Assembly (NCBI GenBank): GCA_964490395.1
Contig: CAZBAS010000003.1
Location: forward strand, 120,293-184,292
Direction: 5' to 3'
Length of the DNA stretch: 64,000 nt
Source of the DNA: an uncultured Candidatus Saccharibacteria bacterium
GTDB taxonomy: Bacteria; Patescibacteriota; Doudnabacteria; UBA920
The translations under genes were made by a program, and so were the position numbers. Shown here in pieces: positions 6,256-55,775 of this stretch. Under the pieces are notes generated by a model that ran no database searches, was not told the DNA's origin, and saw only the letters and a list, made by a program, of their open reading frames with translations. Each line of letters starts with the position of its first letter. Positions within the stretch are counted from its first letter, which is position 1.

Positions 6256-7125
6256 ATGTCTGCCTACGTCTTGCCCAACATTATTTTATTCATAGCAATT
6301 GTCGGGCTTTTGGCAGTTCTGGGACGTCACATCCCAGAGGCGCAAAGGCGTGCCCTGCATGCGCGCGACGGCAAGGAAGACACGAGTGGCTCCGCAGACA
6401 GGTATTGGCTTTTGCTTCAGGGCAAGCTCCGAGGCTTCTGGCGTTTTGTACTTGAGGCAAAAGGACTGCGGGATCCTATTGGCTCTAAGTTCCGCATGCG
6501 CCAGTTGCTTGCTGCAAACCAGCGTAAAACGAGAGCTAAGCAGCCAGCGGCTAAGATATCTGCAGCATACAAAGTAGAAGCAGCAGAAGTTGAGTCTGTG
6601 CCACACGTAGTACAACGCACCGAGAGTGCCCATGTAAAGCGTGTAGAGGCCCCTGTGCGAAGCGCCGCGGCCATACCAGCTATGCCTTCGCAGCACGTGC
6701 CGCACGCCCCAAAAATACACTCAGAAGTGGCCAATCCTGCTGAGCAGCGACAAGCAGCCGCAGAGCAACAAGCTGTGGGTGTAGAGCAGGCTATGACTGT
6801 GGCAAAGCAGTACCTGGACAATAAGCAGTATTTTGAAGCACGAAAGCTTTTAGATAGCCTCGGACAAGATGCCCACGCGAGTCCTGTGTTTTGGGCGCGT
6901 CTTGGCTTTAGCCAGTATCACTTAGGTGCATATGGCGAGGCTATACGCTGCTACGAAAAATCTCTGGGTTTGGACGCAAATCAGCCAAACCGCTATTACA
7001 ACTTAGCCTTAGCCTATGAGGCTGCAGGGAACCGTGTAAAAGCTCTGTCCACGCTCCAGAAAGCAATTCAAATGGATCCTAACAATCCGAAATATACGCA
7101 AACTCGTCAGGCGCTGACTAGTTAG
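6256..7125 (+). CDS. membrane-anchored TPR-repeat protein
   Basis: An N-terminal transmembrane helix is followed by a C-terminal TPR-like stretch (YYNLALAYEAAGNRVKALSTLQKAIQMDPNNP). The start is uncertain (6232 or 6256). Confidence 0.55.
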   Translation: MSAYVLPNIILFIAIVGLLAVLGRHIPEAQRRALHARDGKEDTSGSADRYWLLLQGKLRGFWRFVLEAKGLRDPIGSKFRMRQLLAANQRKTRAKQPAAKISAAYKVEAAEVESVPHVVQRTESAHVKRVEAPVRSAAAIPAMPSQHVPHAPKIHSEVANPAEQRQAAAEQQAVGVEQAMTVAKQYLDNKQYFEARKLLDSLGQDAHASPVFWARLGFSQYHLGAYGEAIRCYEKSLGLDANQPNRYYNLALAYEAAGNRVKALSTLQKAIQMDPNNPKYTQTRQALTS

Positions 7126-7194
7126 CTCAGCTGTTGCGCCACCCGCAACATCTTGCTACAATAAGTCCTGTCTGGTTTTTCTTTTCTTTCTTTT

Positions 7195-9817: not shown

Positions 9818-9911
9818 CAATCGCCAAAACTTAAATTTTCAGGACAAGTGTCCACCGCTGCGAAGAAAGGCGCAGCGGTTTTTTATTGTGCGAATATATT
9901 CGTATATATAC

Positions 9912-9943
9912 AAAAAGAACGTACAAGTTAGTACGTTCTTTTT
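9912..9943. terminator. bidirectional hairpin terminator
   Basis: aaaaagaacgtac aagtta gtacgttcttttt is a perfect 13-bp stem flanked by A and T runs. Confidence 0.6.
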
Positions 9944-9946
9944 GTA

Positions 9947-10216
9947 TGGTGGGCCGAGTAGGATTCGAACCTACGAAGGCATAAGCCAGCTGATTTCAAT
10001 TTTCTCGGAGTTTCCTCTGAGGATCGGACTATATCTTCACCGTGATCAGTATGATGGTAGGTGTTTCGGTATCTAGTCTCTACGGCGCTCCCCGGCAGTG
10101 TGCCAGAGTTCCCACGGTATTACCATATTTACCTTAGTAAATTTAGGCTTCACCGTTATCCCGAAAAGTTCACTTTAGCGTTTCCACTAAAGGCTGCAAT
10201 TGTTTACAGTCAGCCC
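9947..10216 (-). ncRNA. candidate tmRNA (ssrA-like): a tRNA-like 3' terminus whose 5' acceptor partner lies 260 nt upstream
   Basis: On the minus strand the RNA ends GUAGG-UUCGAAU-CCUAC-UCGGCCC-A-CCA, which is a T-arm, a 3' acceptor strand, a discriminator and an encoded CCA. No anticodon or variable arm precedes the T-arm, unlike a tRNA. The complementary 5' strand GGGCUGA lies at plus-strand positions 10210-10216. No canonical -LAA tag ORF was found, so the call is tentative. Confidence 0.4.
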
Positions 10217-10246
10217 CCGTTGACCGCTTGGGTATCGACCCGCGTT

Positions 10247-10846
10247 TTACGCGGTAAGGTCAGTGAGTAATGCTTTGCATTCGGTCAATATTTCTTCAAG
10301 CAGTTTTTTATCGCTGTACCTAATATGGATTACGCCTTGAGGCATTGTTCGGTTTAAGCGCGTGCCCTGATTCTGGCGAACGTAGGGCTTTGTAAACTGA
10401 TTTTTAGAAACTTTAAGGGCTTTCGCCCAGTAATTGATTAGTCCCGTGGGACTATCTTCAGAAAAGCAATACAGGTAAAATCTTAGCTTATTTTCGTCTA
10501 TTTGGCAAATCTCTCTGAGGAATTTAAGGAACAATTTTATTGCTGGCATGGATGAGTTGGCAAGGTCTACGGTATTGCCAGTTTTGGCACCTTCGCCCCA
10601 GTAGAGCATTAAGGCGGCTATTTGGAGGTGTCGTTGTGGGGGAGTCAGCTTACTGACAATACTGTAGGTCTTGGGTGTCTGGAGAAATCGAAGTTTGTTT
10701 TGCTCGGTCTGGCTACGCATGCGCACTTTGGCCCTTCTGAGGATTCGATACACAGTGTGTATCGCCACGCCAGTTTCTCTGGCGATTGCAGGGGTGCTTC
10801 TGCCAGCGTTGTACAATGTAGTTATTTTTTCTGTATCAATCTCCAT
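10247..10846 (-). CDS. helix-turn-helix DNA-binding protein with a C-terminal domain of unknown function
   Basis: The N-terminal HTH reads LYNAGRSTPAIARETGVAIHTVYRIL. The weak LYWGEGAK similarity to LAGLIDADG is not convincing. Confidence 0.5.
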   Translation of the reverse strand: MEIDTEKITTLYNAGRSTPAIARETGVAIHTVYRILRRAKVRMRSQTEQNKLRFLQTPKTYSIVSKLTPPQRHLQIAALMLYWGEGAKTGNTVDLANSSMPAIKLFLKFLREICQIDENKLRFYLYCFSEDSPTGLINYWAKALKVSKNQFTKPYVRQNQGTRLNRTMPQGVIHIRYSDKKLLEEILTECKALLTDLTA

Positions 10847-25900: not shown

Positions 25901-25945
25901 TACCCATGGGCACCATTGTAGCTGCTACAATGGTGCCCATGGGTA
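25901..25945. repeat. perfect 45-bp palindrome of the ATGGGCACCAT family, a likely terminator
   Basis: tacccatgggcaccattgtagctgctacaatggtgcccatgggta. Relatives lie at 28729, 43589 and 53444. Confidence 0.5.
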
Positions 25946-28719: not shown

Positions 28720-28728
28720 TCTCTGATA

Positions 28729-28769
28729 ACAATGGGCACCATTGCGCCATGCAATGGTGCCCATTGTTA
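28729..28769. repeat. palindrome of the ATGGGCACCAT family
   Basis: aacaatgggcaccattgcgccatgcaatggtgcccattgtt. Confidence 0.5.
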
Positions 28770-28775
28770 TGGTAA

Positions 28776-33534: not shown

Positions 33535-35040
33535 TTATGAATTACGTAAAGAGAGCAAAACCTTTATATGGTATGCCGTAATAATTGCAGCAGTGAGCAC
33601 TAGTAACCACACTGGTATGTAAATACTGGCGGCCCAGAGGGTTACGAAGCCGTACCCAAGTGCACAGGCTATGACCAATATTGAGCGCCAAGATGATGGT
33701 CTCGCCGCCTTTGGCAACTTGTAATTTAATTGTAGCAAAAGTGGGGGATAAAGCCACATAGTAAAAGCAGAAAGGCAGGCCGAGAGCACTAACAGGAAAA
33801 AAGGTTGCTTAAATGCTGGAACAAGTAATGATAGGCATAAAATAGCTATGCCTAGAAGGGCTGCGAATATACTGAGGTGTCCGTGTGTTGCTGTTCCCAA
33901 GCGTTTAATTAGTCCTTGGTTTGATAGATTGAGTGGGTTTAAAATGCGGCTGAGTAGGCGACCAATGGCGTCGAGTATGGTCAGGTTCGCCATGATAAAT
34001 ATGAGCGTACCCGCAATGCCAAATAATGTACCAAGGTGGGGGAATAGTGCGTTTAGGGCAAGTATTTCTGCTTTGATAACTCCAAAGCCTTGCGCTGTGC
34101 CAATAGGCAATAAAATGCGTCCAAGGTAAGCAAGGAGGAATATAGAAAATACATTTGCTACAACGAACAGAAGTGCATGCTCCTTATTTATAAACGCAAA
34201 CCATTTTTTAAAGTTTGAGATTGATTCTTTGCTTTCCAATTCTCTTCGGTTTGTCATTCCGGCCCCCGAGCCGGAATCCAGGCTGGGACTAAGATGGATT
34301 CCGGATAGCCCTCGATGACTCGTGGCTTCCGGAATGACAGAGGGGGAGTTAACTCCATAGCCTTTATCTGCAATCCACTCGCTTTGCACTAAGTTGAGTG
34401 CGCCTGCCACTCCGCCGTAGGCTAGCGCGCCTACAAAATCAAAACGCGGCAGATTTTTTGGTATGTAGCCAAAATTAAAGAGGCCGCGCAGCCCTTCCCA
34501 AAAAACTCCCGCATCAAACTTTACTATAACCACAAGTACAATAATGCTTAGTGCACTGCTTAAACCGATGCGGGAAATTTTTTCTAGTATTTTATAAATA
34601 TTCGATTTCCGAAATACCAGTATTGCTAAACCGAGCAGGAGCACGGCGAGTGCTAACCCTATATTTCGTTCTTGTCCTGCAGGTACATTGAAAAGCACTG
34701 CGAGAATGTTTCCCGCCGTGCTCATCCACGCTGGCCACATGAGCGCAGCTATTACCGTGAGTCCAAAGACCGTGGCAAGCCATATTTTGTTTTGCACTAA
34801 CGCTGCTTCTACTCGCTTTCCCGTGACGAGTGTGTAGCGCTCTATTTCTATATTTACCACAAACTGCAGCAGCAGAATTATGAGTAATGGCCACAACAGG
34901 CCAAGGCCAAAGTTCGCCACCAGGCTCGGCCAGAGAAGCATTTCGCCGCCATTGAGCGATAGCGCTACAAAGACTATGCTGGGGCCCAACATAGCTAATA
35001 ACGATTTTGTGAGTGGTGGAAAGGTTTGTGCGTTTTTCAT
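33535..35040 (-). CDS. polytopic membrane protein of unknown function carrying an in-frame MITE-like insertion
   Basis: It has 12 or more transmembrane helices. The element at 34252-34339 is translated as ...PEATSHRGLSGIHLSPSLDSGSGAGM... Confidence 0.5.
   Translation of the reverse strand: MKNAQTFPPLTKSLLAMLGPSIVFVALSLNGGEMLLWPSLVANFGLGLLWPLLIILLLQFVVNIEIERYTLVTGKRVEAALVQNKIWLATVFGLTVIAALMWPAWMSTAGNILAVLFNVPAGQERNIGLALAVLLLGLAILVFRKSNIYKILEKISRIGLSSALSIIVLVVIVKFDAGVFWEGLRGLFNFGYIPKNLPRFDFVGALAYGGVAGALNLVQSEWIADKGYGVNSPSVIPEATSHRGLSGIHLSPSLDSGSGAGMTNRRELESKESISNFKKWFAFINKEHALLFVVANVFSIFLLAYLGRILLPIGTAQGFGVIKAEILALNALFPHLGTLFGIAGTLIFIMANLTILDAIGRLLSRILNPLNLSNQGLIKRLGTATHGHLSIFAALLGIAILCLSLLVPAFKQPFFLLVLSACLSAFTMWLYPPLLLQLNYKLPKAARPSSWRSILVIACALGYGFVTLWAASIYIPVWLLVLTAAIITAYHIKVLLSLRNS
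34252..34339. mobile_element. MITE-like element of the TGTCATTCCGG...CCGGAATGACA family (B1), inside a CDS
   Basis: It has terminal inverted repeats. The internal segment is the reverse complement of the 45025 copy (ccggatagccctcgatgactcgtggc). Confidence 0.5.
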
Positions 35041-38326: not shown

Positions 38327-38908
38327 ATGGCTTTAAAAAAGATAGTGCTCGACTTGGAGACTCAAAATTCATTTGATGATGTAGGCGGTAGGGGCAAGAA
38401 TCATTTGCTTAAAATTTCTGTGTGCGGAGTGTATTTTTCAGATACCGATAAGTACGCTATATACGAAGAGCATGAAATGGGTAAGCTCGCACCGCTCTTG
38501 CAAACCGCAGATCAAATAATAGGATATAACATAAAGGACTTTGACTTTGAGGTGCTGCAACCGTATTTGAACTTTAATATTTTTGAAATTCCGTATTTAG
38601 ACATTCTAGAAGAAATAGAAAAAGTGCTTGGTCACCGCATTCGTTTAGAAGCGGTTGCGCAAGGTACGCTAGGAAGTGGCAAGTCTGGCACGGGTTTGCA
38701 AGCTATTCTATATTGGCGCAATGGACGTTTAGATGAGTTAAAAAAATACTGTTTGGATGACGTAAAAGTGACCAAACAAGTCTACGAGTACGCCATGAAA
38801 AATAAAAAACTCCTTTTTTCCGACTATTTCAGCATAAAAGAAATCCCCATAACCTTTGCAGAAGCAAAGGAGAGGGGGGAGGTGTACCACCAAGCTGGAC
38901 TGTTTTAG
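38327..38908 (+). CDS. DEDD-family 3'-5' exonuclease (DnaQ-like)
   Basis: It has the exo I motif LDLET, exo II YNIKDFD and an exo III H/D region. Confidence 0.65.
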   Translation: MALKKIVLDLETQNSFDDVGGRGKNHLLKISVCGVYFSDTDKYAIYEEHEMGKLAPLLQTADQIIGYNIKDFDFEVLQPYLNFNIFEIPYLDILEEIEKVLGHRIRLEAVAQGTLGSGKSGTGLQAILYWRNGRLDELKKYCLDDVKVTKQVYEYAMKNKKLLFSDYFSIKEIPITFAEAKERGEVYHQAGLF

Positions 38909-38969
38909 CGCCTTTATTTTCATTTTGTGAGCATGGGCGTTATTTGCAAATTTCAGGTATTATATAGAC

Positions 38970-40046
38970 ATGAAACTTTCTCGTAGCAAAACTACCTATG
39001 CGCCCCTTGTTGTATTGGGGCTATTTATATTGGCCCTGTTTTTACCGCAGGTCTTTTCAGGAAATTGGGTTCTCCCACAGTTTTTTAGCATTGGACCCAT
39101 AACCATTCATTACTACGGCATAACCATGGCGCTTGCTGTGGCTTCTGCGTGGTGGCTTGCAAGTAAACGTGCTCCGCAGTATGGCCTTACTCAAGAGCAA
39201 GTAGATACTTTATCGCTTTGGCTGGTAGTAGGTGGGCTTATTGGCGCGCGGCTCTACCACATTGCTAGTAGCTGGCAGTATTACTGGCAGTACCCATTAG
39301 AAGCGCTTAAGATTTGGCACGGCGGCCTTTCCATATTCGGCGCTCTTCTTGGCGGTTTTATTGTTTTGCTGTTCAGCGCAACAGCAAAAAATAAACTGTC
39401 AATATCAACAGGGGGAGGCACTAGTGTCATTGCGAGCGATGCTTTGAGAACGAAGCAATCTAATACTATGACGGCGGATGAGATTGCCGCGTCGCAGACT
39501 CCTCGCAATGACAAGAGGGAGAGCGGGGTTGCGTCTTCTGCCCCCATTCAACATTCTGCATTCAACATTCTGCATTTACTAGATTGGCTTGCCCCGTCTG
39601 TCCTCCTTGGCCAAATTATTGGTCGCTTTGGGAACTTTTTTAACTACGAGGCCTTTGGATATCCTACAAATCTGCCGTGGAAAATGTTTGTGCCAGAATA
39701 TTTTAGACCGAGCGAATATATAAGCGCTCTATATTTCCATCCATTATTTTTGTACGAGGCGCTGGGAAATACTTTTATATTTCTTGGCTTACTCTATTTT
39801 TTCCGGGCCAATCGCATCAAGAAAAGTGCGAAGCCAGTACCTGCTGGCGCGCTATTCTTTAGCTATCTAATTTTGTATAATGTACTTAGATTTGCTCTAG
39901 AACATTTACGTATAGACAGCACGTTCTTGGTTTACAGTATACGACTCAATGCTCTGGTCAGTGGGTTCTTGGTGGTATTGAGCGCAGCAGGCTTGTATTG
40001 GCTGCAGAAACGTGCAAATGGTGCCACAGCAGTTAGCCCCACTTAA
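38970..40046 (+). CDS. lgt: prolipoprotein diacylglyceryl transferase carrying an in-frame ~90-bp MITE-like insertion
   Basis: It has the Lgt signature HYYGITMALAV..GGLIGARLYH..WHGGLSIFGALLGG. The insert is translated as ...SVIASDALRTKQSNTMTADEIAASQTPRNDK... Confidence 0.85.
   Translation: MKLSRSKTTYAPLVVLGLFILALFLPQVFSGNWVLPQFFSIGPITIHYYGITMALAVASAWWLASKRAPQYGLTQEQVDTLSLWLVVGGLIGARLYHIASSWQYYWQYPLEALKIWHGGLSIFGALLGGFIVLLFSATAKNKLSISTGGGTSVIASDALRTKQSNTMTADEIAASQTPRNDKRESGVASSAPIQHSAFNILHLLDWLAPSVLLGQIIGRFGNFFNYEAFGYPTNLPWKMFVPEYFRPSEYISALYFHPLFLYEALGNTFIFLGLLYFFRANRIKKSAKPVPAGALFFSYLILYNVLRFALEHLRIDSTFLVYSIRLNALVSGFLVVLSAAGLYWLQKRANGATAVSPT
39425..39513. mobile_element. MITE-like element of the TGTCATTGCGAG...CTCGCAATGACA family (A1), inside lgt
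   Basis: The terminal inverted repeats are tgtcattgcgagcga and ctcctcgcaatgaca. The internal part is a gcaatct...agattgc inverted repeat. Confidence 0.5.
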
Positions 40047-40094
40047 CTACGGTTATTTGAAATTTGTTATTTGATCCTTGGAACTTAATTTAAG

Positions 40095-40844
40095 ATGCTT
40101 ACTTTAAAAAGCCATAAAACTCTGAGCGTGCTTGCGGCATGCATCCTGCCGGCTGCCATGTACAGCCTGGCAGTTCCGGTGCCGGTGTTTCGGTATATAG
40201 TGCCGCTGTTCGTGTGCTTAGTTGCTATAGTGCAAGGCCTATCTTGGACTACACTTACGGGCGCTGCAGACGGGAAACGCTGGAGCCTTCTTCGGAGCAG
40301 TTTGTTTTACATTGCCTGGCTCTGTTTGTTTTTTCTTATGCCAACGCATACTCTGCAAATGGCGTATATGATAATTTCTGTTCCTATTTTGTATTTGGGT
40401 GAGCAGCTCGTAGCCTACACCGGTGAGACTGTGTTGGTAACACACACCATACTTACCAGCTTTGGCATTTTACTTGCTGCAGCGGCAGGTGAATTTTATT
40501 TTCATGCAGGAAGCGTTGTGCTTACTTTGGCAGTATTTGTTTGTCTGTTTTTACTCACCCGCGCAACCTATGTATTTGTGCCGCAAACTAGCACTATTCG
40601 CTTGGCGTCATCTTTGTTAGTTGCGTTTCTTGCCACAGAAGTGTATGCGTCCGTGCTGTTCTTGCCATTCCACTATACAGTACTCGGTTTCTGCGCCTTC
40701 ATTGTTTTTTACATAGTATGGCTGTTTACCTATTACTGGCAGTTTGGGGCTTTAACGCCTCAGCGAGTTAAGCTATACTTGCTTGTAAGCGCTGCGTTGC
40801 TTGTTGCGCTATTACTTGCTACTCCGTGGCAAATAATGACCTAG
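40095..40844 (+). CDS. hypothetical polytopic membrane protein
   Basis: It has seven or eight transmembrane helices. Confidence 0.45.
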   Translation: MLTLKSHKTLSVLAACILPAAMYSLAVPVPVFRYIVPLFVCLVAIVQGLSWTTLTGAADGKRWSLLRSSLFYIAWLCLFFLMPTHTLQMAYMIISVPILYLGEQLVAYTGETVLVTHTILTSFGILLAAAAGEFYFHAGSVVLTLAVFVCLFLLTRATYVFVPQTSTIRLASSLLVAFLATEVYASVLFLPFHYTVLGFCAFIVFYIVWLFTYYWQFGALTPQRVKLYLLVSAALLVALLLATPWQIMT

Positions 40845-43588: not shown

Positions 43589-43615
43589 TGTCTAGATGGG
43601 CACCATCTAGACAGT
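43589..43615. repeat. short palindrome of the ATGGGCACCAT family
   Basis: ctgtctagatgggcaccatctagacag. Confidence 0.4.
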
Positions 43616-43632
43616 AGAAGTATAAAATCTTT

Positions 43633-43735
43633 TGTCATTGCGAGGAGGCTTTGTGACGAAGCAATCTAATGAATGATTAAGAGAAATATTAGATTGCCAC
43701 GTCATTCCGTAAAGCCGGAACTCCTCGCAATGACA
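43633..43735. mobile_element. MITE-like element of the TGTCATTGCGAGGAG family (A2), intergenic
   Basis: The terminal inverted repeats are tgtcattgcgaggag and ctcctcgcaatgaca. Confidence 0.5.
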
Positions 43736-49631: not shown

Positions 49632-49639
49632 TGAAGAAA

Positions 49640-49737
49640 TGTCCAATTTCTAATATCTAATATCTAATGTTCGGACTATAGGGTTAAGAATTTTCATTAG
49701 GAATTAGAAATTAGGTATTAGACATTAAACGCCAGTT
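49640..49737. repeat. AT-rich inverted-repeat element of the TAATTCCTAATTTCTAAT family, upstream of the subtilase gene
   Basis: aatttctaatatctaatatctaat is paired with attaggaattagaaattaggtattagacatt. Confidence 0.5.
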
Positions 49738-51402: not shown

Positions 51403-51464
51403 GTATTTCAGCTGGTTTACTCTTGAACGAAACAAACTTCATTTGTGTAGGGTATACTATATAT

Positions 51465-51556
51465 AAATATCTAATTCCTAATTTCTAATGTCTAAAAAAA
51501 GACAAAGGAAAATCCGAACATTTGGAATTAGAAATTAGGAATTAGAAATTCATTTG
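51465..51556. repeat. AT-rich inverted-repeat element of the same family, downstream of the subtilase gene
   Basis: atctaattcctaatttctaatgtct is paired with ggaattagaaattaggaattagaaatt. Confidence 0.5.
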
Positions 51557-53443: not shown

Positions 53444-53484
53444 GATGGGCACCATCTGCACGTTGCGTGCAGATGGTGCCCATC
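53444..53484. repeat. palindrome of the ATGGGCACCAT family, a likely terminator
   Basis: gatgggcaccatctgcacgttgcgtgcagatggtgcccatc. Confidence 0.5.
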
Positions 53485-55599: not shown

Positions 55600-55775
55600 T
55601 GTCATTGCGAGGAGGCCAGGCTCTGATGGTTGACGCGGCAATCTGCACTCCAATGTCATTCTGGGGGAGACTTTGTGACCGAAGAATCTAGATCCTTCGT
55701 CGCTCAGATGCATTCGCTTCTCAGGATGACAAATGCAAAGGGGTGAATGGTCACAGGGCGTTGCTCGCAATGACA
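55600..55775. mobile_element. MITE-like element of the TGTCATTGCGAGGAG family (A3), a longer nested copy
   Basis: The terminal inverted repeats are tgtcattgcgaggag and gttgctcgcaatgaca. The interior contains a second tgtcattctg...caggatgaca pair. Confidence 0.5.

Follow-up and report, generated by a model that had tools for sequence, protein, structure and literature searches.

The lgt locus

This analysis concerns a 64,000-nucleotide stretch of the genome of an uncultured member of the Patescibacteria (contig CAZBAS010000003.1 of 192 kb, positions 120,293 to 184,292), hereafter called the window, and within it the gene lgt, which encodes the prolipoprotein diacylglyceryl transferase Lgt and contains a palindromic segment of 89 bp. 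Among the source samples are DRR235452, DRR235453 and SRR12487046. The features of this locus, in positions of the window, are the following.

38970-40046, plus strand: lgt (prolipoprotein diacylglyceryl transferase), identified by Pfam PF01790, homologues and signature residues
39384-39569, plus strand: whole expanded cytoplasmic loop (residues 139-200), in place of about 6 residues of Escherichia coli Lgt, delimited by phmmer alignment to 5AZB, an AlphaFold2 model and hydropathy
39425-39513, no strand assigned: palindromic repeat of 89 bp, a head-to-head dimer of two TGTC-tagged units, recognised by its outer inverted repeat, fold and family architecture
39425-39464, plus strand: left unit, with TGTC tag, ATTGCGAG box, variable part, GAAGCAAT box and CTA tail, recognised by sequence and by the same boxes in 133 copies elsewhere
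39478-39513, minus strand: right unit, inverted, reading TGTC-ATTGCGAGGAG...CGCGGCAAT-CTC on the minus strand and shorter than that of the intergenic copy described below

The open reading frame at 38970-40046 is intact and encodes a protein of 358 residues that matches the Pfam family LGT (PF01790; E-value 5.4e-61, 206 bits) in two stretches flanking the insert. In a phmmer comparison this protein matches E. coli Lgt (5AZB) with an E-value of 5.5e-15, and its homologues (n = 1818) come mostly from Patescibacteria. According to PMC13251419, the Lgt of monoderms is not functional in E. coli. By alignment and phmmer, residues Y49, R219, N222, E227, G230, R307 and E311 correspond to E. coli Y26, R143, N146, E151, G154, R239 and E243, respectively; these seven signature or essential residues are all present and are invariant among 21 homologues. 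Judged from its sequence, the window gene most likely specifies an active enzyme with untouched catalytic machinery.

The palindromic element begins with TGTCATTGCGAGCGA at 39425 and ends with CTCCTCGCAATGACA at 39513. Its outer inverted repeat is complementary at 12 of 12 positions (TGTCATTGCGAG at 39425-39436 and CTCGCAATGACA at 39502-39513), its inner repeat (ACGAAGCAATCTAAT / ATGAGATTGCCGCGT) is 80% complementary, and its predicted RNA fold reaches -35.2 kcal/mol (z = -4.4 against dinucleotide shuffles). The lgt frame passes through the element with no stop codon and reads it as VIASDALRTKQSNTMTADEIAASQTPRND, the peptide encoded by the insert including stretches such as TKQSNTMTADEIAASQTPR. 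An initial annotation of this DNA had described a palindromic insertion of about 90 bp in lgt, with these termini and an inner inverted repeat, between intact Lgt signature blocks, and all of this is confirmed by the length, complementarity and residues given above.

An open frame of this kind could be accidental if lgt were a decaying pseudogene or an assembly chimera, as repeats can cause misassembly and stop-free frames through copies of this repeat family are common. This is nevertheless a very improbable explanation. The lgt sequence is identical in assemblies from three independent sequencing runs, and the insert is thus no assembly artefact. Moreover, the frame is full-length (358 residues), retains all the invariant Lgt residues and stays in register for 178 codons downstream of the element, and the gene order (RNase H-like protein, lgt, 249-aa protein, PDZ protease, sortase) is common to the window and to the loci of its homologues P0002 and P0003.

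The initial annotation had also considered that the RNA or the protein might be processed, the segment being removed before the mature protein is formed, as an intron-like RNA or an intein-like protein segment. In favour of removal one can cite only the general consideration that a foreign, strongly folding segment sits in an essential enzyme, together with the presence elsewhere in the window of a genuine group I intron (10004-10215), which indicates that self-splicing RNAs occur in this genome. However, the element matches no Rfam family, even at E-values up to 10, and its length falls far short of that of group I or group II introns. Since 89 is not a multiple of three, excision at the ends of the palindrome would shift the frame. 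In the protein, Pfam shows LGT only, with no intein, Hint or endonuclease domain, and the segment has none of the Cys/Ser...Asn-Cys/Ser junction residues of inteins; most copies of the repeat family, in addition, are intergenic. Removal of the segment is extremely unlikely on these grounds.

Several other features of the region were considered and rejected. Just 3' of the element, lgt contains an exact tandem duplication of 14 nt (CATTCAACATTCTG twice, 39545-39572) that is read in two frames, as IQHS and FNIL, and the relative at L003 has a different 14-nt tandem (CACAACCTACAACC twice) at the same place (about 6430-6462). The peptide QHxxFNILH also occurs in P0002, P0006 and P0008 and is thus common to relatives, which rules out the tandem as a fresh insertion footprint. 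An internal terminator in lgt was ruled out as well, because a promoter and terminator scan of 38800-40200 gave signals at chance level only and no T-run follows the hairpin of the element. A split Lgt arising from a restart further downstream was discarded because the TTG that follows an AGGGAG-like stretch is out of frame.

Position of the insert in the protein

The phmmer alignment pairs residues 36-138 of the window protein with residues 14-119 of E. coli Lgt and residues 201-348 with 126-285, leaving 139-200 unmatched. In the E. coli structure, H103GGL lies at the periplasm-side start of the third transmembrane helix (TM3), R122 and R143 lie in TM4, and D129 lies at the protein's cytosolic side, a side that has no significant catalytic role (Mao et al., 2016). 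Together, the alignment and these positions place the insert in the cytoplasmic turn between TM3 and TM4. In an AlphaFold2 model built on 21 homologues (mean predicted local distance difference test score, pLDDT, 73; predicted template modelling score, pTM, 0.70), residues 144-196 have a pLDDT below 50 and no secondary structure, forming a coil between helices 122-146 and 200-221, and the loop is predicted to be disordered. The segment is hydrophilic (mean hydropathy -0.51) and contains no 19-residue window above 0.52.

Relative to the related lgt copies at L004 and L005, the peptide of the insert does not behave as a conserved sequence. Its differences from the L004 copy fall equally on the three codon positions (13/13/13 over 29 codons), and those from the L005 copy are distributed 14/15/22; the peptide is thus under no detectable constraint. 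With an open frame, no signal of an intron, intein, terminator or promoter, and no constraint on the peptide, read-through translation is the best-supported mechanism by which lgt is expressed.

A separate peculiarity of the Lgt proteins of this clade concerns the HGGL motif. E. coli H103 pairs with F124 (IFGAL) in the window clade (39318-39347, Lgt residues 117-126), so that the motif is not kept, and WHGGLS of this clade pairs with WDGGMS of E. coli. In these patescibacterial proteins, the histidine to which importance is ascribed in E. coli is thus either shifted by seven residues or missing.

Insertion into a recurrently hit loop

The spacing between WHGGLS and GQxxGRFGN is 92 residues in the window Lgt versus 38, the mode, in about 60 of 110 homologues. 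The loop has thus grown by about 54 residues over the mode, and by 62 compared with E. coli Lgt, and the palindrome itself accounts for about 30 of these residues. The syntenic nearest relatives, P0002 (L001/L002) and P0003 (L003), have an Lgt lacking the element. At the DNA level, the site reads GGTAGTGT-AGTTGAA-GCCTCTGGGGCCCCC in P0002 and ACTAGTGT-CATTGCGAG...[element]...GCGTCTTCTGCCCCC in the window. These comparisons support a lineage-specific insertion in an lgt that is intact in other respects.

The remaining claims of the initial annotation can be judged from this evidence. Its estimate of roughly 30 extra residues holds for the palindrome and is too low for the whole insert, which comprises 54-62 residues. 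Alignment to Lgt orthologues agrees with an insertion, as P0002 and P0003 lack the segment and it is not conserved in the Lgt of unrelated bacteria. As to topology, the insert lies in the cytoplasmic TM3-TM4 turn and, by hydropathy (-0.51), is hydrophilic and not hydrophobic. The suggestion that the loop tolerates the insert finds support in this position, in the hydrophilic disordered coil of the model and in the other inserts that relatives carry.

Expanded loops occur in about a dozen other Lgt homologues, and palindromic repeats are found there at the DNA level too. The lgt genes at L004 and L005 carry an element of the same family as the window, in the same loop and in the same frame; that at L007 has a member of this family there too, read in another frame and thus the product of an independent event; and those at L006 and L008 contain, in this loop, elements that resemble the published CGTC-1 repeats discussed below. 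The presence of the same or other palindromic repeats in this loop of several related genomes points to a permissive, repeatedly hit site. On a neighbour-joining tree of Lgt from which the loop was left out, carriers of the ATTGCGAG-type element fall into three separate clades, beside non-carriers or carriers of other families, and the sisters P0007 and P0008 have different repeat families at the same site. In our reading, this scattered distribution, seen in sequence comparisons, reflects a permissive site at which elements were repeatedly gained, lost or replaced.

A single ancient insertion in the ancestor of the clade, later lost or overwritten in many descendants, would instead derive these copies from one event. 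The window, L004 and L005 copies share the frame (S|VIA...PRND) and a similar position, and the right flanks in the window and L004 are similarly purine-rich (AAGAGGGAG and AAAAGAGAGGGG). Yet the carriers belong to three separate clades whose nearest neighbours are non-carriers or have other families, and the L007 copy is clearly independent. The window copy, moreover, scores best against the intergenic copy of its own genome, and the L004 and L005 copies align better with it in reverse orientation. A single origin is therefore rather doubtful, although it deserves more weight than the other alternatives considered here.

Repeat-like inserts are also found in other loops of Lgt, as in P0013 (L005; residues about 46-80, FTSPNPLLERGGIGQKNFPVLPLSKGELEG) and in the C-terminal loop of P0052 (L007). 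The TM3-TM4 turn is the main but not the sole permissive site of this protein.

A dispersed family of palindromic repeats

The terminus GTCATTGCGAG, with at most one mismatch, occurs seven times in the window versus 0.69 expected, and none of 100 shuffles reaches seven. Two intergenic segments of the window belong to the same family as the lgt element.

43633-43735, no strand assigned: intergenic, well-preserved copy, recognised by termini, fold and alignment score
55600-55775, no strand assigned: intergenic composite copy, with a CGTC-1-like sister element nested at 55654-55731

The copy at 43633-43735 forms a single long hairpin (-48.9 kcal/mol, z = -9.6) and is the one against which the lgt copy obtains its best alignment score. 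Compared with it, the lgt copy appears to have decayed since landing, its inner stem being largely lost. Both intergenic copies have stops in five of six frames each. In the composite copy, a CGTC-1-like palindrome (TGTCATTCTGGG...CTCAGGATGACA, 55654-55731) lies within a ATTGCGAG-type palindrome (55600-55775), and the lgt copy of L005 likewise has an extra hairpin nested inside; from these nested copies, the repeats seem to land in one another. Global identities between copies are uninformative because palindromes align both ways and gaps inflate identity; pairwise values were therefore dropped, and only alignment scores and orientation were used, as weak evidence.

An exact-pattern scan of public genomes, in which a single genome stood for each species, detected these termini and boxes at at least 120 loci in at least seven phyla. 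Among the matches listed are Alpha- and Gammaproteobacteria, Bacteroidota, Planctomycetota, Desulfobacterota, Chloroflexota, Ignavibacteriota and Patescibacteria, many of the proteobacterial loci coming from cultured Bradyrhizobium. The architecture common to 133 public copies is YY-GTCATTGCGAG, a variable part, GAAGCAATC[C/T], a variable loop, [G/A]GATTGCTTC, a variable part and CTCGCAATGAC-RR, and all family copies found are dimers with the tags outward. GTCATT is preceded by C in 71% and by T in 24% of the 133 copies; the three ATTGCGAG-type copies of the window, and the sister copy at 34252-34339 described below, have TGTC at both ends. After the unit stem ATTGC...GCAAT, most proteobacterial copies have CCA, and those of the window have CTA or CTC. 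In any given frame, 41-53% of the family copies are free of stops, versus 33% of shuffles. Three of the 133 public copies lie in Pfam-confirmed genes, all three in frame.

L043, 4466-4543: ATTGCGAG-type copy in the gene for GMP synthase (GuaA), within the GATase domain
L050, 2835-2921, minus strand: ATTGCGAG-type copy in the gene for a UvrA-type ABC ATPase
L060, 7300-7386: ATTGCGAG-type copy in the gene for a penicillin-binding protein (PBP) transglycosylase of a Patescibacteria genome

Target-site duplications of 2-5 nt in the flanks of the 133 copies are at or below chance. Rfam searches (whole window at the gathering threshold, the element at E-values up to 10, and four loci with pristine copies at E-values up to 1) assigned the repeat to no family and otherwise gave sub-threshold noise, Pfam found no family for two element-derived peptides, and a literature search by element DNA and by characteristic peptide strings retrieved no relevant description. 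The ATTGCGAG/GAAGCAAT palindromes thus constitute a family that is spread over many phyla and that we have not found described by sequence.

Comparison with known repeat systems

Several known classes of short repeats resemble the lgt element in part. The Rickettsia palindromic elements (RPEs) are defined by the in-frame presence of palindromic repeats in housekeeping genes (Ogata et al., 2000, 2002; as summarised in PMC10969869). They share with the present family, so far as that summary describes them, that short many-copy palindromes occur in frame in unrelated genes and add peptides at fold-compatible positions, and such an in-frame palindrome at a structurally permissive site is found in lgt and in further host genes. 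However, the RPEs summarised there are from Rickettsia, have their own sequence families and are mostly about 100-150 bp long, whereas the boxes are different here and the host belongs to the Patescibacteria. The peptides differ too (VIAS...PRND here versus, e.g., SFLRKQES...RFRGND for RPE-type dimers; PMC3733652), and with this host and these peptides the lgt element is not a member of the Rickettsia families. For some proteins decorated with RPE-1, translation has been shown, according to work cited in PMC3733652.

A further likeness is with the CGTC-tagged superfamily of repetitive extragenic palindromic sequences (REPs), whose units bear an unpaired terminal CGTC tag, often TGTC and in some variants CCTC, have a stem that starts with AT and end in a tail close to CCA (Di Nocera, De Gregorio and Rocco, 2013; PMC3733652). 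These repeats form mostly head-to-head dimers with spacers of 20-100 bp, occur in five phyla with no associated transposase, and are sometimes intragenic, including in uvrA, PBP 1C and lnt (PMC3733652). The lgt element resembles them in its terminal tag, AT start, tail, dimer layout, distribution over several phyla and occasional intragenic copies; a terminal tetranucleotide tag, an A/T stem start with a 3-nt tail, and dispersed, mostly intergenic head-to-head dimers were all found. In contrast, the lgt-type unit is self-complementary over 5 bp only (ATTGC/GCAAT), not over a stem of 8-9 bp with a loop of 4-5 nt, and its ATTGCGAG box pairs with CTCGCAAT of the partner unit. The sister elements (34252-34339, 55654-55731 and the lgt inserts of L006 and L008) encode peptides of the VIP...AGI(Q)/GMT type, as in the published CGTC-1, and the plus-strand unit hairpin of 34252-34339 (ATTCCGGC-CCCGA-GCCGGAAT) fits the CGTC stem and loop dimensions. 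VIAS, SLRG, LAMT and PRND are absent from the intragenic-repeat table of PMC3733652, the comparison with CGTC-1 to CGTC-4 being one of peptides, and Patescibacteria are not among the phyla listed there. From this likeness the lgt element probably works like the CGTC REP dimers and is related to them.

The REPINs are also made of two inverted REP units that form one larger hairpin, with no target-site duplication and a mostly intergenic location. They carry a GTAG tag, are lineage-specific and go with a RAYT gene that is present in single copy between REPs of the same kind (Bertels and Rainey, 2011; PMC3116915), whereas the tag is CGTC or TGTC here, the boxes are common to many phyla and no RAYT gene was seen, no search aimed at it having been made; the tag rules out a GTAG/RAYT REPIN for the lgt element. 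Classical miniature inverted-repeat transposable elements, or MITEs (Correia, ERIC, RUP and others; PMC10969869), are small and non-autonomous, have terminal inverted repeats and include some in-frame fusions to host open reading frames. The family of the lgt element shares with them the terminal inverted repeats, the small size and the in-frame copies. MITEs, however, normally have target-site duplications and the ends of a parent insertion sequence, but there is no duplication above chance in the 133 copies and no parent insertion sequence was identified. Classical MITE transposition was ruled out for the lgt element on account of the missing duplication.

A sister element in an Nramp-like gene

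A further embedded palindrome of the window belongs to the sister, CGTC-1-like type.

34252-34339, minus strand: palindrome TGTCATTCCGG...CCGGAATGACA, read in frame as VIPEATSHRGLSGIHLSPSLDSGSGAGMT within an Nramp-like gene (33535-35040, minus strand)

The host gene encodes a conserved Nramp-like membrane protein of 501 residues. The segment is missing from most homologues of this protein, and others carry different inserts at this point. The 'SNSQFPISN' inserts of Nramp-like homologues might be in-frame copies of a repeat similar to the AATACCTAATTCCTAATTTCTAAT / ATTAGAAATTAGGAATTAGGTATT type described at the end. The element occupies the same codon position in the window, in L132 (about 10700-10790) and in L133 (about 7090-7185). 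Between these three genomes only 2-4 of its 29 third codon positions differ, versus 56-60% of those in the remainder of the gene (P about 3e-6 to 7e-9), and the changes within it are not concentrated at third positions. On the tree, carriers are interspersed with non-carriers. Any of three processes would account for this conservation: selection on the hairpin at the nucleotide level, concerted evolution with further copies, or independent insertions of recent date at one codon.

This observation bears on the possibility that the palindrome in lgt is itself kept for a nucleic-acid role, either as an mRNA hairpin acting on lgt translation, stability or RNase processing or as protein-bound DNA, like the REPs bound by gyrase or IHF, the peptide loop being a by-product. 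Apart from the sister element, with its 2-4 of 29 third-position differences, such a role would agree with the preservation of the family boxes at the nucleotide level across phyla and with the still perfect 12-bp outer stem of the lgt copy. However, most of the inner stem of this copy is lost (z of -4.4 versus -9.6 in the intergenic copy), it has no excess conservation relative to the lgt copies of L004 and L005, and terminator or promoter signal is not above chance. Furthermore, the closest relatives lack the element, sister lineages have different families at the same site, and recent independent insertions or gene conversion could also account for the conservation seen in the Nramp-like gene. 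We regard a nucleic-acid role of the lgt copy as improbable.

A broader proposal is that embedded palindromes with CGTC or TGTC tags are maintained or renewed at specific intragenic sites, through selection on the hairpin or through active, transposase-independent, site-preferring copying across phyla. It arises because one embedded copy is several-fold better conserved than synonymous sites and because different families are present in the same codon neighbourhood in sister lineages. We put it forward as speculation that is unlikely to be right, if somewhat less so than a nucleic-acid role of the lgt copy.

A probably translated and tolerated repeat

In all, we consider it highly probable that the 89-bp segment, a copy of a dispersed palindromic repeat, landed in lgt and is translated and tolerated there as an RPE-like insertion, its translation, tolerance and route of arrival being inferred. 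In this model, a non-coding palindromic repeat, a dimer of TGTC/CGTC-tagged units folding as one long hairpin, would land in the stretch of lgt for the TM3-TM4 turn. Together with the neighbouring extra sequence, the insertion keeps the frame of lgt and introduces no stop, so that the element would be transcribed and translated with the gene and yield an Lgt whose unstructured, hydrophilic cytoplasmic loop is 54-62 residues longer. The catalytic machinery lies on the opposite membrane face and is left intact, and the landed copy would then have decayed, losing most of its inner stem. The open frame fits a filter by which the only survivors are stop-free, frame-keeping insertions in a tolerant loop.

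Some points weigh against this explanation. About 24-32 extra residues beside the palindrome (SISTGGGT, KRESGVASSAP...) are not explained by the 89-bp element, and translation of the insert is deduced only from the open frame. In the Nramp-like gene the sister element is far better conserved than synonymous sites, a hint that embedded copies may at times be more than neutral passengers. As for mobilisation, there is no target-site duplication (2-5 nt, 133 copies) to explain it, and the published CGTC repeats come with no associated transposase (PMC3733652).

The kind of event described here, an intragenic REP- or RPE-like insertion, is already known. The initial annotation had recognised neither this precedent nor the place of the segment in a dispersed repeat family of several phyla that has intergenic copies in the window. 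Modestly new are the patescibacterial host, the recurrent use of one loop of Lgt and a widespread repeat family not found described by sequence. The case is a clean one, in the reduced genomes of the Patescibacteria, of repeat DNA that appears to have been absorbed by an essential membrane enzyme without harm. It suggests that the cytoplasmic TM3-TM4 turn of Lgt is freely expandable, a property of use in the tagging or engineering of this enzyme and in reading length variation in its alignments. The ATTGCGAG/GAAGCAAT family occurs repeatedly in frame in real genes, as exemplified by those for Lgt, GuaA, UvrA and PBP. It also carries a warning for annotation, since many 'hypothetical proteins' with VIAS..., SLRG..., ...LAMT or ...PRND peptides would be translated repeat. 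The understanding of lipoprotein maturation is unchanged.

Other repeats and RNA elements of the window

The group I intron mentioned above (Rfam RF00028, 59.5 bits, 10004-10215) splits the anticodon loop of a tRNA with a long variable arm (about 9947-10240, minus strand) that ARAGORN does not call. Its 5' exon is GGGTCGATACCC...GCTGACTGT and its 3' exon AAATCAGC...GGTTCGAATCCTACTCGGCCCACCA, the anticodon is probably GUA (Tyr), and a terminator hairpin follows the tRNA at 9908-9947. Another intergenic palindrome family, with the low-complexity arms AATACCTAATTCCTAATTTCTAAT / ATTAGAAATTAGGAATTAGGTATT, is present at 2811-2906, 49638-49719 and 51463-51553. Finally, perfect intergenic hairpins of 19-22 bp with the core ATGGGCACCAT / ATGGTGCCCAT, probably terminators or another small repeat family, lie at 25901-25945, 28726-28770, 53444-53484 and about 43596-43620.

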